DNA from: Nitrospirota bacterium
Lineage (GTDB): Bacteria; Nitrospirota; Nitrospiria; 2-01-FULL-66-17
Direction: 5' to 3'
DNA: 64,000 bases
NCBI GenBank assembly: GCA_049325335.1
Contig: JBMOMC010000002.1
Location: forward strand, 46,612-110,611
Shown: positions 13,864 through 60,315 of the stretch, in pieces
Position numbering within the stretch: position 1 is the stretch's first letter
How the letters are laid out: the number at the start of each line of letters is the position of its first letter
The notes under the pieces: model-generated
Told to the model about the DNA's origin: nothing
What the model saw: only the letters and a program-made list of their open reading frames with translations
The model's database searches: none
Translations under genes and position numbers: made by a program

Positions 13864-15396
13864 TCAACCCACCGCGTCGATCAAGGCCTGGGCTTTATAC
13901 AAGGTCTCGCGGTACTCCTTCTCCGGGTCTGAGTCCGCCACGATCCCCGCGCCGGTGTAGAACGACAGCTCGCCGCGTGTTCGCGTCAACGTGCGGATCA
14001 CAATGTTCCAATCCATGTGGCCCGACCACGACACGTAGCCGATGGACCCGGTGTACAACCCGCGCGACACGGGCTCCAGTTCGTCGATGATTTCCATGCA
14101 GCGGATCTTGGGCACGCCGGTCACGGTCCCGCCGGGGAACACCGCATCCAACACGTCGAAGCCCGTCGCGCCCTCCCGGAGCAGGCCGCGGATATTGGAC
14201 ACGATGTGGATGACGTGCGAGTACCGCTCCGTGACCATCAGCTCATCCACCTTGACCGATCCGTACGCGCACACTCGGCCCAGATCGTTGCGCTCCAGAT
14301 CCACCAACATCAGGTGTTCGGCGCGTTCCTTGGGGTTGAGCAACAAATCGGCCGTGAGATCGTCGTCATCGGTCGGGGTCGCGCCGCGGGGCCTGGTGCC
14401 CGCGATGGGACGGGTTTCCACCTCGCGGCCGGACACCTTGACCAGGCGTTCGGGCGATGAGCAGATGATTTCGGTCTCGCCAAGGTCCACAAACGCCGCG
14501 AACGGGGCGGGGTTAATGGTACGCAGGCGCCGATACACGTCCAACCCGTCGCCGTGATGCGTGGCCGTGAATCGCTGCGCCAGATTCGCCTGGAAGATAT
14601 CGCCCGCCGCGATATAGTCCTTGGCGCGGTCCACCATTGCGCAATACGCCTCGCGCGACATGCCGGCAACGATCGAGGCTGCGGGCGCGGTCGGGCTCAC
14701 GTGTTCCGCGCTGAGGCCACGCGTCACCGCGCCGAGAAAGTCCCTCAGCCTGGTGCGGCCCTCTTCCAGCAGCCGCGCGCGCGGCTCAGCCGCAAATCGC
14801 TCGGGAGACGGACAAAACGACGCGGTAAACGTACGCTCAACGTGATCGAACGCGCCCACGAGATCGAACAACATCCAATGCAGGTCCGGAAAGAAGTCGG
14901 TCCGATCGTGTGGTGCGCCGCGTCGGTGCCGTTGCGAGAGCCTGTACCCCAAGCATCCGATCGCGCCCCCGATAAACGGCGGTGCCCCGGGCGGCGCGGC
15001 CACGGCGCCCGGCAGCATCTGGTCAAACACGGCGGCCAGGGGATCAACCGTCGGCGTGGTCGTGGTTTCGCCGGACGTTGACGTCCAGCGGGTCAACGCG
15101 CCGTGTTGGGCCGTGACAGTCTGATACGGCGCGCCGCCGATGAACGAGTACCGTCCCAGCGCTCCGCGACCGGCTCGGCTCCCACTCTCCAGGAGAAACG
15201 ACGGCGCTGCCGCGCGGATAGCGGAGTACGCATCCACCGGCGCGAGATCCCCAAGTGGAATCGTCGCCAACAGCGGAACCGGCACGCGCGCGTCCAGAAA
15301 CCGGGCTTCATTGGTCAACACGCGCCCATCTTCCCGCGCGACTCCGCGCGCTGTCAAGCAGTCGAGTCGTGGTGAGACGCTCCGTGGCGCGTCCAT
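13864..15396 (-). CDS. pabB: aminodeoxychorismate synthase component I / anthranilate synthase component I family
   Basis: Chorismate-binding enzyme C-terminal pattern (GGTVTGVPKIRCMEIIDELEPVSRGLYTGSIGY). Confidence 0.8.
   Translation of the reverse strand: MDAPRSVSPRLDCLTARGVAREDGRVLTNEARFLDARVPVPLLATIPLGDLAPVDAYSAIRAAAPSFLLESGSRAGRGALGRYSFIGGAPYQTVTAQHGALTRWTSTSGETTTTPTVDPLAAVFDQMLPGAVAAPPGAPPFIGGAIGCLGYRLSQRHRRGAPHDRTDFFPDLHWMLFDLVGAFDHVERTFTASFCPSPERFAAEPRARLLEEGRTRLRDFLGAVTRGLSAEHVSPTAPAASIVAGMSREAYCAMVDRAKDYIAAGDIFQANLAQRFTATHHGDGLDVYRRLRTINPAPFAAFVDLGETEIICSSPERLVKVSGREVETRPIAGTRPRGATPTDDDDLTADLLLNPKERAEHLMLVDLERNDLGRVCAYGSVKVDELMVTERYSHVIHIVSNIRGLLREGATGFDVLDAVFPGGTVTGVPKIRCMEIIDELEPVSRGLYTGSIGYVSWSGHMDWNIVIRTLTRTRGELSFYTGAGIVADSDPEKEYRETLYKAQALIDAVG
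15319..15359. repeat. direct repeat copy 1, inside the pabB 5' coding region
   Basis: 41 bp matching 15572..15612 at 38/41; weaker similarity extends to about 64 bp. Confidence 0.7.
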
Positions 15397-15468
15397 GAAC
15401 GTTCGGTTGATGCGCGGTTGACGGGCGTAATTGGCAGCTGCTATGGTACGCCTATGTTTTATGAGGAT

Positions 15469-15551
15469 GGGGATGTTGTTTAAAGATTAAAAGCTCACTG
15501 CAATACCTGCGGCGCAAACCTCCGATCATAAAATCTTTAAACAACGTCCCC
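15469..15551. repeat. inverted repeat / hairpin, 20-bp arms (19/20) with 43-nt loop
   Basis: GGGGATGTTGTTTAAAGATT ... AATCTTTAAACAACGTCCCC in the AT-rich segment between the two pabB-5' repeat copies. Confidence 0.6.
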
Positions 15552-15571
15552 AATCAGTCCCAATTGGCTAG

Positions 15572-15612
15572 CACGCGTCCATCTTCCCGCGCGGCTCTGC
15601 GCGCTGTCAAGC
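15572..15612. repeat. direct repeat copy 2, diverged duplicate of pabB 5' end
   Basis: Reverse translation gives LTARRAAREDGRVLA versus pabB LTARGVAREDGRVLT; no in-frame start. Confidence 0.7.
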
Positions 15613-15833
15613 GATCAAATGGTGGGGCATTGACGGCTGCGTGATGTCAGAGGCCCTTGACGAGCGCGCGCTGAAGCGTGTTAGGCTGGGTACGCCTTAT
15701 TGGGATTTGACAGTGGAAGTGAAGTGGCTTTGAGACCGTCGTGATAATAAATCTGTCCCGTTAGTTGTAGAGAGGGCCGAAGAAAATGGTTCCTGTCACC
15801 CTCCGGGTCCCTGGCCCCAATCGTGGGCCGCAA

Positions 15834-17009
15834 TCAGTTCAAGGGAACGAATGAATTCCGGAACGACATCCACGCCTCCGCAAACTGTTCAGTCCGACCC
15901 ACATTCGACACCTGGTATTCCTCGTGCAGGCCACTACTGCTCTTGAAGACCAGCGCGCCGTATACGGTGACGGGAATCTGATAGTTGTCCTTGAAACGGC
16001 GATCAGGGCTGCCATCTTTGTTTGTCTTCGCCCAAGTATGCTCGATCACCCGGCTATCAGATGGCACATGCTCGTGCTCAATGAACTGAACTGGTGTGTA
16101 AGTCAGAACGACGTCGCGCGTGTCGATAAGGGCAAAGGCCTCTTTGGACACGCGATAGAGAATAAACCCCGGATAGATCCATAGGTCACCACCATTCCTA
16201 TTCGCGAGGTGAGGCACCTGCTGATCCCAGCTAATTAATTCACTCCGTCCCAGTCTAAACGTGACAGGTTCTCTGGTGATGGCCTCTTTGGCGAGGGATC
16301 GTTCGACAATGGCATTTGTTGGCCGTTTGGTCAGCGTGTCCCAGATCTGTTGGGACTCCGCGAGTGTGGCAAATGTGTCGCGCATGCGGTAATAGGGCTC
16401 AGCTTGCTCGCTAGGAATATCGAACTCGGTTGCTAGTGTTGTGAGGCGGAGCTGCTCTTGCAGCTCCGCTTGCTTGGCGGTCGCAGTGTCAGCGTCATTT
16501 TTGAGTTGGGCAAACCGGGTCTTCCACAGATTTTTAAGTAGAAACCCTCGGTCCCATCGTTGATAGCGGTCCGCAGCGTGCTCTTGCTCGCGGTCTGCAA
16601 GCGCAAGTTCCCTCTCAATTTCGTCGTGCTCATCCCGTGTAGTCTTAAGCAATTTCCGAAACTCCTCGAGGCCCTCACTTGTGAGCATTTGAGTGCTCGC
16701 GCTGCGGACCTCCTGAGTCGGTGCCGCCGGTGGTGAGGTTGGTTTTGGGACGGAAACTGTGTCAGGGGGATCTAGAAACGGAGTGATGCTAGGGACATTC
16801 GCCGGATCAGTTGCGTGGAGCCCCCTCCCAGCGATCCGGGTACGAAAGGACACGCCGGTGCCAGGAGCTGAGACGTTTCCATAAACCCCACGTGGTCCGA
16901 TGTTGAGTGAAAACGGGGCGGTTCCAATGGTTGTACTAATACCACTACGCGAAAGATTGAGGCGGACGCCTGGCAGTAGTTTGAATGTCTTCCTGAACCG
17001 CCAACCCAT
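15834..17009 (-). CDS. DUF4236-family protein with coiled-coil middle and uncharacterised C-terminal domain
   Basis: N-terminus MGWRFRKTFKLLPGVRLNLSRSGISTTIG matches the DUF4236 opening; low-GC codon usage unlike neighbours. Confidence 0.65.
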   Translation of the reverse strand: MGWRFRKTFKLLPGVRLNLSRSGISTTIGTAPFSLNIGPRGVYGNVSAPGTGVSFRTRIAGRGLHATDPANVPSITPFLDPPDTVSVPKPTSPPAAPTQEVRSASTQMLTSEGLEEFRKLLKTTRDEHDEIERELALADREQEHAADRYQRWDRGFLLKNLWKTRFAQLKNDADTATAKQAELQEQLRLTTLATEFDIPSEQAEPYYRMRDTFATLAESQQIWDTLTKRPTNAIVERSLAKEAITREPVTFRLGRSELISWDQQVPHLANRNGGDLWIYPGFILYRVSKEAFALIDTRDVVLTYTPVQFIEHEHVPSDSRVIEHTWAKTNKDGSPDRRFKDNYQIPVTVYGALVFKSSSGLHEEYQVSNVGRTEQFAEAWMSFRNSFVPLN

Positions 17010-17220
17010 GTGTCACTCGCTACTATAACAAGGCAGGAGAACCTCAAATACCCCTCCTATTTACTCGGATTCCCTGTCGGAGTCAATCGACTAACAAGCA
17101 ATCCCTCAGGCTCGCTTCAAAATATCGCAGACAAAGGAACTTATCAGCGCAACGCCCACCGAGTGACGCAAAGTAAGGGCCTCTCTCCTAACCCGCGTTG
17201 GTTTTGACACGAGGTCGGCT

Positions 17221-19008
17221 GTGGCTATACTTGGCCGCGTCGCGAGGGGAGCCGTTTGGTCGGTCTTCCTCGCGCTCTTACTTATCGCAGACATGGTGCA
17301 CGAACCCCTCAAGCCGGCATCTGTTGGAGCCCAGCTGGCACCCGAAAATCCTTTGGTCGAGTCCGCCCGCGAGGTGATGCGCGGGTTGGTCAAGGCCGTC
17401 AAAGCGTCGAAGATGTATCTGCCGGAGCACGAGATTTGCCGGAAGTTCCGAGACGATTTTGCAGGGCGGCTGTTGCGGCATCTGGACGAACAGGGCGACC
17501 TGGCGCTGACGGTCAAGGGGTGCGAGTTCTATGTCGGAGACACGCCGGTGTATGAGGAGCCCAACCGGTTCGAGAATCTGGCGTTTCGGTGTTCGTCGGA
17601 CGGCCTTTGTGAATTGGTCCTCCACCAGGGGCTGACGCGCGCAGACCTCGACCGGTTGTTGGATGTGCTCACGTCCGACGCGCGGCCGCTGGACAACGAC
17701 ATTGTCACTAGGTTGTGGGAGCAGCCGATTCCGCACGTCACGTATGAAGTGGCCGAGGTCGATGAAGCCTCGGATCGCGAGGTGGCGCTGTCATCCCGAC
17801 CGCCGGGCGCGAGATCGTTGTCCGAAGCCGCTGATGACGCTCCAGGGGCCGGGGCGCCCGCTCCTGAGCCGGAGGTCATTCCCGACTCGCTGCGTCATGA
17901 CAGTCCGGTGTTCACGCTGACGGATCAGGACATCGAGTTGCTGCAACGGCAAGTGGTGGAAGACAGCACGCAGGATTACGTGGGGCAGTTGATCGATATT
18001 CTGACGTCGATTCTGATGTTGGACGACGATGAGCAGTCGTTTCTGGAAGTGTTGCAGGTGTTGGACGACATTGTGGCCGCCAGCGTCACGCAGGATCGGT
18101 TCGAGCGCGCCAACGATATCGTGAGCCGGTTGTCGGCGTTGCGGGACGACGAGGTCAAGGTCTCGGCGCGCAGTCGCGAGTTGATTCGCGTAGTCTGGAC
18201 CCAGATGGGGAGTTGGGAGCGCGTGGCGCCCTTGGGGAATTCCCTCAGTCGGCAAGGCGCGTGGGAGTCGGACGCCATTGCGCGCTATCTGATCCAACTG
18301 CCGTCTTCCGCCGTGGACTCGCTGATCACTCTGCTCGATCACGTGCAGACCGCCAAAGGGCGACGGATCATTTGCGACGCGTTGACCGCGTTTGCGGGCG
18401 AGGCGCTGGACGCCATGCTCTCGCGGCTTCCGGAGGCGCCTTGGTACGTGGCGCGCAATCTGATCTATGTTCTGGGGCGCGTGAAGGATCCTCGTGCTCA
18501 GCCGGCATTGGAAACGTTCATGGGGCATGCCGATGTGCGCCTTCGCCGCGAAACGCTCAAGGCGTTGGAAGCGCTCGGCGCCGAGCGGCTGGCCGAGGCG
18601 CTTCCCCAGTGGTTGGGTGATGATGACGACGGGGTGCGACTGCACGTGCTTCGTTTGGCGCGCCGTCATCCATCGCGGGATCTTCTGGCGGCCTTGATCG
18701 CGGCGATCAATGACCGCGGGTTTGCCCACCGCAAGGACGCGGAACAGCGCGAGTGGTTTGATACGCTCGCGGATGTTGGGGGCGACGCGGCGTTGTCGCT
18801 GATCCGGCCGTGGTTGGAGCTGGGACGCGGGTGGCGGCAACTCTGGTCGGCGCGGCACGATGCGCGGGCGCGGCATGCCGTGGCGCTGGTGCGGCGAGTC
18901 GGGTCCTCCGCCGCGGTGGCGCTCTTGCGGGAAACCGTCGCGTCCGCGCGAGGGGACATCCGCGAGGAAGCGCGCCGCGCCCTGCAGGACCTGGAGCGTG
19001 CGGCGTGA
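17221..19008 (+). CDS. HEAT-repeat protein
   Basis: Repeated HEAT/PBS-lyase-like units in the C-terminal half; GTG start; stop overlaps next gene start. Confidence 0.7.
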   Translation: MAILGRVARGAVWSVFLALLLIADMVHEPLKPASVGAQLAPENPLVESAREVMRGLVKAVKASKMYLPEHEICRKFRDDFAGRLLRHLDEQGDLALTVKGCEFYVGDTPVYEEPNRFENLAFRCSSDGLCELVLHQGLTRADLDRLLDVLTSDARPLDNDIVTRLWEQPIPHVTYEVAEVDEASDREVALSSRPPGARSLSEAADDAPGAGAPAPEPEVIPDSLRHDSPVFTLTDQDIELLQRQVVEDSTQDYVGQLIDILTSILMLDDDEQSFLEVLQVLDDIVAASVTQDRFERANDIVSRLSALRDDEVKVSARSRELIRVVWTQMGSWERVAPLGNSLSRQGAWESDAIARYLIQLPSSAVDSLITLLDHVQTAKGRRIICDALTAFAGEALDAMLSRLPEAPWYVARNLIYVLGRVKDPRAQPALETFMGHADVRLRRETLKALEALGAERLAEALPQWLGDDDDGVRLHVLRLARRHPSRDLLAALIAAINDRGFAHRKDAEQREWFDTLADVGGDAALSLIRPWLELGRGWRQLWSARHDARARHAVALVRRVGSSAAVALLRETVASARGDIREEARRALQDLERAA

Positions 19009-59403: not shown

Positions 59404-59585
59404 GTCCGTCCTCCTGTTTGGGGGTTCGCCAAAGGCTCAAGTGCCCTGGTCACCTCGGAGACGGACGACCGAGCCGGATATTACACCGGGCCAAACAATG
59501 CCCCGCCTTCCCTCCAAACACGTGGTCCGCACCGCTTGTCGGGTGAACGCGGAATACGATAGACTCCGGCCTCTGAGAGCTACCG

Positions 59586-60191: not shown

Positions 60192-60315
60192 GCCGGGAGG
60201 ATCGGCGCGCCGTTTCCGGCGAGGCCCTGTTCCGGCACTGTAATATCCGCGACGGTCGTCCGTCTCCAGGGTGAGCACGGGCAATGGGCCTGGGGCACCA
60301 CGAGGAGGGCGACCC

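Follow-up and report, generated by a model that had tools for sequence, protein, structure and literature searches.

An inverted-repeat hairpin at a promoter junction upstream of a pabB-like gene in Nitrospirota: probable kinship with miniature derivatives of ISL3-family insertion sequences

The region upstream of the pabB-like gene

The DNA analysed here, referred to as the window, is a 64-kb stretch of a Nitrospirota genome in which a gene for a chorismate-binding enzyme is preceded by a long-armed hairpin lying between two versions of the promoter region of that gene. The encoded protein reaches the NCBIfam cut-off for neither TrpE nor PabB, so that ‘pabB-like’ is the safe name for it, and its GTG start agrees with that of a 485-aa NCBI protein (P0001, 100% identical). 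The features of the region are given below in the order of their coordinates, with L numbers designating the loci collected from other genomes and metagenomes.

13864 to 15321, minus strand: pabB-like gene for a chorismate-binding enzyme (Pfam Chorismate_bind and Anth_synt_I_N), adjoining a class IV aminotransferase gene
15310 to 15372, minus strand: repeat copy 1, the working pabB promoter (-35 TTGACA at 15352-15357; -10 GAAGAT at 15328-15333; GTG start at 15319-15321)
15418 to 15468, plus strand: orphan promoter TTGACG-18-TATGGT (15418-15447) with five codons, ATG TTT TAT GAG GAT (15454-15468)
15468 to 15552, no strand assigned: hairpin, read as a probable MITE-like element, with terminal inverted repeats (TIRs) at 15468-15488 and 15532-15552 and a core of 43 nt (15489-15531)
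15553 to 15563, minus strand: outer tail TTGGGACTGATT, beyond the arm, which resembles a tandem duplicate of the arm tip in degenerate form
15563 to 15625, minus strand: repeat copy 2, a relic of the pabB promoter (TTGACA, 18 nt, GAAGAT; GTG at 15572-15574 and about four codons), cut off beside the tail
15626 to 17201, no strand assigned: rest of the extra DNA, made up of L002-like upstream sequence and a DUF4236 ORF and absent from L003
15831 to 15843, minus strand: armless second occurrence of the tail motif, CTTGAACTGATTG, followed by the tip-like GATTGGGG, overlapping the stop codon of the DUF4236 ORF

A preliminary description of this sequence had reported a hairpin of 20-bp arms and a 43-nt loop between two repeat copies of the pabB 5' end, with a promoter-like TTGACG-18-TATGGT on the plus strand, and had proposed that its folding energy be calculated and that further copies of the arm be sought. 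The hairpin was borne out: the arm at 15469-15488 (GGGGATGTTGTTTAAAGATT) recurs as its reverse complement at 15532-15551 with one mismatch, and the inverted repeat extends to 21 nt on each side (15468-15488 and 15532-15552), where 20 of 21 positions (95%) are complementary and 43 nt separate the arms. The promoter was likewise recovered, one base away from its original placement, and the flanking repeats proved to be a 63-nt direct repeat with 83% identity between copies and no third copy in the window. The lone mismatch in the stem sets a T opposite a G, which would form a G-U wobble in plus-strand RNA. By inspection, the arms are not palindromic in themselves apart from TTTAAA, and the reference orientation used for the family (arm, then TTTTATG) is the minus strand in the window.

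The element measures 85 nt, or about 96 nt with the tail, which is below the 500-bp limit for MITEs, and its G+C content is 42% against 63% for the window. No other inverted repeat in the 64-kb window has arms of 21 nt with at most one mismatch and a loop of at most 100 nt; none comparable arose in 40 dinucleotide shuffles of the window, and the arm has no third copy within it. The predicted RNA folding energy was -35.0 kcal/mol for the plus strand (z = -6.0) and -37.3 kcal/mol for the minus strand (z = -5.1); folds this stable arose in 0 of 200 shuffles. A looser inverted repeat was seen far from the hairpin, with arms of 58 nt at 59428-59485 and 60239-60296 that are 76% complementary and 753 nt apart, and it overlaps several candidate ORFs.

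In the working pabB promoter, 18 nt separate the -35 and -10 motifs and the GTG start follows six bases after the -10, with three further codons completing the repeat; this promoter-start spacing predicts a leaderless pabB mRNA. The promoter motif is conserved, in one copy each, at five orthologous loci (L001, L002/L032, L003 and L037/L038), where the module lies at about 1590-1650 in L001, 2462-2525 in L002, 300-360 in L003 and 732-795 in L037. The 18-nt spacer is G+C-rich and contains in the window a small palindrome, CGCGCG ACTC CGCGCG, which differs among relatives and is often still self-complementary. Among all versions of the motif, copy 2 has diverged furthest, sharing 38-44 of 51 positions with each of the others, as expected for a relic no longer under selection.

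The two copies differ in ancestry. Copy 1 and the 95 nt upstream of it are L001-like, while copy 2, the sequence upstream of it (15634-15762, which matches the L002 upstream region) and positions 75-375 of the pabB alignment are L002-like. Across overlapping 150-column windows of those alignment positions, identity was 0.81-0.90 to L002 vs 0.73-0.84 to L001, and the remainder of pabB and the downstream genes are closest to L001. Roughly the first 350 nt of the pabB-like gene were accordingly nearest to L002 (up to 0.90 identity) and the rest nearest to L001. This mosaic points to homologous recombination within the pabB-like gene between related Nitrospirota lineages, as judged from the alignments.

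The junction at the hairpin

On the plus strand, window positions 15409-15469 match L001 1539-1599 at 83.6% identity. The window then reads ATGTTTTATGAGGAT followed by the hairpin arm; L001 continues as an intact gene of 168 aa (MFYEDVF...). With the arm placed after codon 5, the window frame becomes MFYEDGDVV followed by a stop, and the plus-strand promoter is the orphan of a gene that the hairpin cuts off after its fifth codon. On the opposite side of the hairpin come the 11-12 nt of the tail and then copy 2 of the pabB promoter, which is truncated within the first four codons. The hairpin therefore lies exactly between two different truncated units, and since a simple insertion would leave the same gene on both sides, this arrangement indicates a rearrangement or recombination at the element. 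The intact counterpart of the stub in L001 (852-1554) encodes 168 aa with a weak resemblance to nucleotidyltransferases (DUF6036-like); a 67-aa ORF overlaps it, and the layout of the pair recalls an accessory module of the toxin-antitoxin type.

Comparison with L003 delimits about 1.84 kb of extra DNA in the window (~15373-17201), between the pabB promoter and a HEAT-repeat gene: L003 2-286 matches window 17486-17202 and L003 from 313 onwards matches the pabB promoter, so that the two are adjacent in L003. The HEAT-repeat gene occupies 17221-19008 in the window, and in L003 the two divergent promoters stand back to back. The extra DNA includes the DUF4236 ORF (15834-17009, minus strand, 391 aa), for which neither PADLOC nor NCBIfam gave a match, and G+C content drops between 15250 and 17200. 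Every relative examined had different DNA upstream of pabB. The preliminary description had named the same hairpin at orthologous pabB loci as a finding that would speak against its proposals; the hairpin was absent from the orthologous position at all five loci compared (L001, L002, L003 and L037/L038, with L032 included) and by this test is not a conserved pabB-associated structure.

Copies of the hairpin and their relation to ISL3 elements

With the search for further copies in other contigs, the hairpin comes to six full copies, that of the window included, and one decayed copy, all at unrelated loci. Five of the full copies have homologous loops and occupy non-orthologous sites (the window, L002/L032, L009, L019 and L014); the sixth, L008, differs in its loop, and the decayed copy is that of L025. 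The full hairpins recovered by the exact-arm scans (L008, L009, L014 and L019) are 83-90 bp long. The closest comparison is with L002, where positions 1490-1589 match window 15464-15563 by BLAST with 93% identity over 100 bp; that hairpin lies about 900 bp upstream of the L002 pabB in a different context. An nhmmer profile built from the copies scored the window hairpin at E = 5.5e-28 and found no further copies in the 266 kb of collected loci and the window, where the hairpin is thus a single copy. The genome and metagenome scans used one exact 19-mer, so that diverged copies are under-counted, and the other matches to this 19-mer, which lie in AT-rich genomes and lack the GGGG tip, are due to chance.

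The copies are apparently few, with one per 64 kb here and two exact-arm matches in one other MAG, a Nitrospirae genome from groundwater, which supplied both L008 and L009; L014, L019 and L025 all come from one metagenome. Every site has its own set of neighbouring genes (an ISL3 transposase fragment with DUF488; RNase III; adenosine kinase; a group II intron reverse transcriptase; DUF5131 with cytochrome c), towards which the copies may lie in either orientation. In all copies the arms show sequence conservation, and the homology of the loops of the window, L002, L009, L019 and L014 copies indicates that the short form itself was propagated. The hairpin is therefore a member of a small dispersed repeat family. 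Solo arms were also found, in L002, L020, L023 and the Elusimicrobia contigs L004/L030 and L010, and no transposase lies alongside those in L004/L030, L010, L020 and L023; viral contigs gave no match to the arm. In L019 (530-2173), the hairpin stands about 280 nt downstream of the ORF of the group II intron reverse transcriptase/maturase, and its flank carries GGGGGACGAT directly ahead of the arm.

The connection with ISL3 insertion sequences comes from L002 and L032, which are two samples of one locus. There, the arm with its inner bases (GGGGACGTTGTTTAAAGATTTTATG; 25-26 nt) begins 7 nt past the stop codon of a transposase fragment of 214 aa, which matches positions 174-370 of the NCBIfam ISL3 model with 182.1 bits (cut-off 180), carries the Pfam domain DDE_Tnp_ISL3 and has plasmid homologues annotated as ISL3 family. 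A complete ISL3 relative, L036, encodes a transposase (P0125) that is 69% identical to the L002 fragment and is bounded by inverted repeats of 49 nt at 57-105 and 1355-1403. Its outer tip lies 25 nt beyond a conserved GGTTCATC encoding the C-terminus of the transposase, and in L002 the G-run of the arm (GGGGG) begins exactly 25 nt beyond the same GGTTCATC. This common offset places the arm in the position of an ISL3 terminal repeat, and the inner bases TTATG are common to the IS end and the hairpin. By this positional comparison, the arm corresponds to one end of an ISL3 element.

The match to the presumptive parent IS is with one end only, the one next to the L002/L032 ISL3 fragment and positionally homologous to the L036 repeat, as the IS is truncated there and its other end is out of sight. 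None of the copies has a DDE_Tnp_ISL3 transposase between its repeats, the transposase being present only in L002/L032 beside the solo arm; no intact IS bounded by both arms was recovered among the collected loci, and no ISL3 transposase was detectable in the window. Four ISL3 elements with transposases about 70% identical (L033-L036) have different ends without this arm. The L002 locus has an arrangement of its own, in which the C-terminal half of the ISL3 transposase is situated between the solo arm and the full hairpin (L002 786-1589, equivalent to L032 2841-3640), both of which are preceded by an ACTGATT tail. The full hairpin there has the transposase, which lacks its N-terminal part, on one side and the 3' end of a DUF488 gene on the other, and its far arm provides the last codons and the stop of the DUF488 ORF.

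A conserved tail next to one arm makes the outer boundaries of the element uncertain. By BLAST, the match to L002 continues for 11-12 nt past the arm, showing that the tail travels with the arm in the L002 copies; tails similar to the ACTGATT of the two L002 arms occur in L025, L023 and L019, and in several copies GGGAC(T)GAT(T), in which the arm tip is repeated in tandem and in degenerate form, stands ahead of one arm. Of 19 arm ends, 8 have GGAC in the 13 nt flanking them on the outside; in 5000 null trials the mean was 1.0 and the highest count 6. Target-site duplications (TSDs) of 3-12 nt were absent from the six copies at any offset within 25 nt, as were duplications of 3-10 nt with an offset common to the copies, and none is visible at the complete relative L036. 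ISL3 elements normally give 8-bp target duplications, for example Tn7546 (PMC9782665); the missing TSDs are atypical for ISL3 and, together with the tip-like tails, are the sole unusual features of the element.

The tail motif has a second, armless occurrence in the window. The exact match to CTTGAACTGATTG at 15831-15843, of which about 0.004 would be expected by our estimate, shares the orientation of the hairpin, from which it is 280 nt away. The stretch around it (15806-15849, GGTCCCTGGCCCCAATCGTGGGCCGCAATCAGTTCAAGGGAACG) contains this motif together with tip-like CCCCAATC motifs and includes the stop codon of the DUF4236 ORF, and may be the relic of another element end, one that truncated that ORF.

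Origin of the element and alternative explanations

The explanation that we favour, with a probability of about 0.68, is that the hairpin derives from an ISL3-family IS as a non-autonomous, MITE-like element, left as a remnant of about 85 bases at a rearrangement scar. Such an element would consist of two IS ends (TIRs of about 21 nt with a few adjacent bases) joined over the 43-nt core without a transposase gene, and an ISL3 transposase with its gene elsewhere would have spread its copies in trans. Recombination or rearrangement at the element, such as a crossover of two copies or a one-ended event, may then have produced the present arrangement; it would have put the L001-like promoter and start module before pabB and reduced the older L002-like promoter to a relic. 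The preliminary description had offered three identities for the hairpin, namely a MITE-like remnant, an attachment site and a structured sRNA; the dispersed family and the correspondence of the arm to an ISL3 end support the first of these, and the other two found no such support.

Prokaryotic MITEs are shorter than 500 bp, AT-rich and derived from IS elements, have TIRs of 4-30 bp and lose their flanking direct repeats with age, and they have been described as hotspots of homologous recombination (PMC10969869). The hairpin resembles elements of this kind, such as QMITE2 of Coxiella (PMC10969869), in being small and non-coding, with TIRs of about 21 nt and a composition AT-richer than its host, in having a transcript that would fold into a stable stem-loop, and in its occurrence at several unrelated sites, the apparent match of its arm to one IS end and its position at a recombination junction. 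It differs from them in the lack of a TSD at any copy, in apparently few copies and in the conserved tail outside one arm, which makes the repeat not strictly terminal. Compared with ISL3 ends (L036; Tn7546, PMC9782665), the arm likewise starts with a G-run, 25 nt outside GGTTCATC, and in L002 it abuts an ISL3 transposase fragment; unlike ISL3 elements, it comes with no transposase in the element or the window and no 8-bp TSD, and its sequence differs from the ends of L034, L035 and L036, notwithstanding transposases that are about 70% identical.

The absence of TSDs at every copy speaks for another route, in which a palindromic repeat was moved without TSD by something other than classical ISL3 cut-and-paste transposition, candidates being a REPIN-like repeat moved by a RAYT and IR-replacing insertion in the style of IS1272, with the ISL3 fragment of L002 as a bystander or target. 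The enrichment of GGAC or tip-like motifs outside the arms (8 of 19 ends), the tip-like tandem tails that accompany the arm and the placement of the two best-preserved copies between unrelated truncated genes would all suit such a route. IS1272, of the IS1182 family, uses inverted repeats as targets, produces no duplication on insertion and may have its left end duplicated in tandem (PMC5678879), and so shares with the hairpin the missing TSD, an inverted-repeat-like target sequence and one tandemly duplicated end; it belongs, however, to another IS family and replaces its target repeat entirely, and the resemblance is a lead from reading only. With REPINs, which are doublets of REP sequences that form hairpins and are mobilised by RAYT transposases, the hairpin has in common an intergenic position, two inverted conserved arms, a less conserved spacer and no TSD, but its arms are not REP-like palindromes, its copies are far fewer, its arm matches an ISL3 end and no RAYT gene was seen, albeit in no systematic search. 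Neither a RAYT nor an IS1182-type gene was noticed next to any copy, and against mobilisation by such means stand the location of the arm exactly at the expected tip of an ISL3 terminal repeat relative to the transposase C-terminus and the inner TTATG shared by IS end and hairpin; we regard it as unlikely. More doubtful again is a bolder version, in which the repeat is no passive cut-and-paste MITE and acts as an end-module (the IR tip with its tandem tip-like tail) that joins unrelated DNA without TSD by one-ended or IR-replacing-type events and delivered a 253-bp cassette, comprising the element, the divergent promoter and the pabB promoter and start, into the pabB 5' end; if true, the promoter of an essential folate gene would have been swapped with the gene kept intact.

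A function as RNA, whether a structured sRNA or a cis-regulatory hairpin acting on pabB and transcribed from the plus-strand promoter (15418-15447) or the minus-strand relic of the pabB promoter, is quite improbable on the present evidence. Its attractions are the very stable predicted fold, promoter-like sites on both sides of the stem at 6 nt and about 20 nt from it, and the ability of MITE transcripts to serve as sRNAs in other bacteria (PMC10969869). No Rfam 15 family was matched at the gathering thresholds, however (the best sub-threshold hit was a eukaryotic snoRNA model with 27.9 vs 50 bits), permissive E-values gave nothing meaningful for the hairpin, a scan of 15200-16000 found no terminator-like sites and neither strand has a T-run after the stem. 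Pairing is not specially preserved across the five copies compared, where 1 of 29 pairs is compensatory and 12 of 29 are broken in at least one copy, and the copies stand in unrelated contexts and in both orientations to neighbouring genes; both promoters are explained as remnants of truncated units, and the five orthologous pabB loci lack the hairpin. The sRNA of the preliminary description is therefore not borne out, and the foldability of the element can be attributed to its inverted repeats being transposase-binding ends rather than an evolved RNA structure. A chance palindrome or generic transcription terminator, for which the intergenic, AT-richer setting might be cited, has a negligible probability, given the 0 of 40 shuffled windows with a comparable repeat, the near-identical copies in other genomes, the empty terminator scan and the missing T-runs; chance in particular is refuted by the shuffles and the copies.

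The preliminary description had also considered an attachment site, which can be formulated as the recombination site of an integrative islet, with the 63-nt repeats as attL and attR and the hairpin as a recombinase-binding palindrome. The direct repeats flanking the hairpin, the ~1.84 kb absent from L003 and the lower G+C content from 15250 to 17200 are compatible with an islet, yet the repeats enclose only 190 bp and leave the rest of the extra DNA outside, they consist of the conserved pabB promoter and the first four codons, and at 83% identity they have different ancestries. Moreover, scanning the neighbouring ORFs revealed no integrase or recombinase domain, the window has no tRNA or tmRNA genes and the hairpin recurs at loci without such repeats, so that this identity is highly improbable. 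An integron attC site was tried as well and rejected: read inwards, the arms give GTT...AAC, the reverse of the order in attC core sites (RYYYAAC ... GTTRRRY), there is no second hairpin at the far end of the DUF4236 ORF that would indicate an array, and the ORFs scanned include no integrase.

With the ISL3-derived, MITE-like element as the preferred explanation, the hairpin would account for the odd composition of the pabB upstream region, with its duplicated promoter, its orphan promoter with a five-codon stub and its AT-rich extra DNA, all of which are in keeping with scars left by IS-related rearrangement and by recombination among related Nitrospirota lineages. Today the element is probably inert, with at most passive transcription from the two orphan promoters that converge on it, and is most likely an ordinary kind of bacterial genome debris. 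For annotation, the consequence is that the region should not be labelled as an sRNA gene or an attachment site. A literature search found no described miniature element from Nitrospira or of ISL3, and the hairpin would add an undescribed ISL3-related miniature element in uncultured Nitrospirota of groundwater and soil.

The 20-nt arm also occurs in identical form in Elusimicrobia MAG contigs (L004 6637-6656, equivalent to L030 1128-1147, and L010 458-477), which have a G+C content of 50-54%. The solo arms there adjoin accessory genes, namely those for a retropepsin-like protease and a DUF1016/YhcG nuclease, and this identity of the arm hints at an exchange of the parent IS between phyla.
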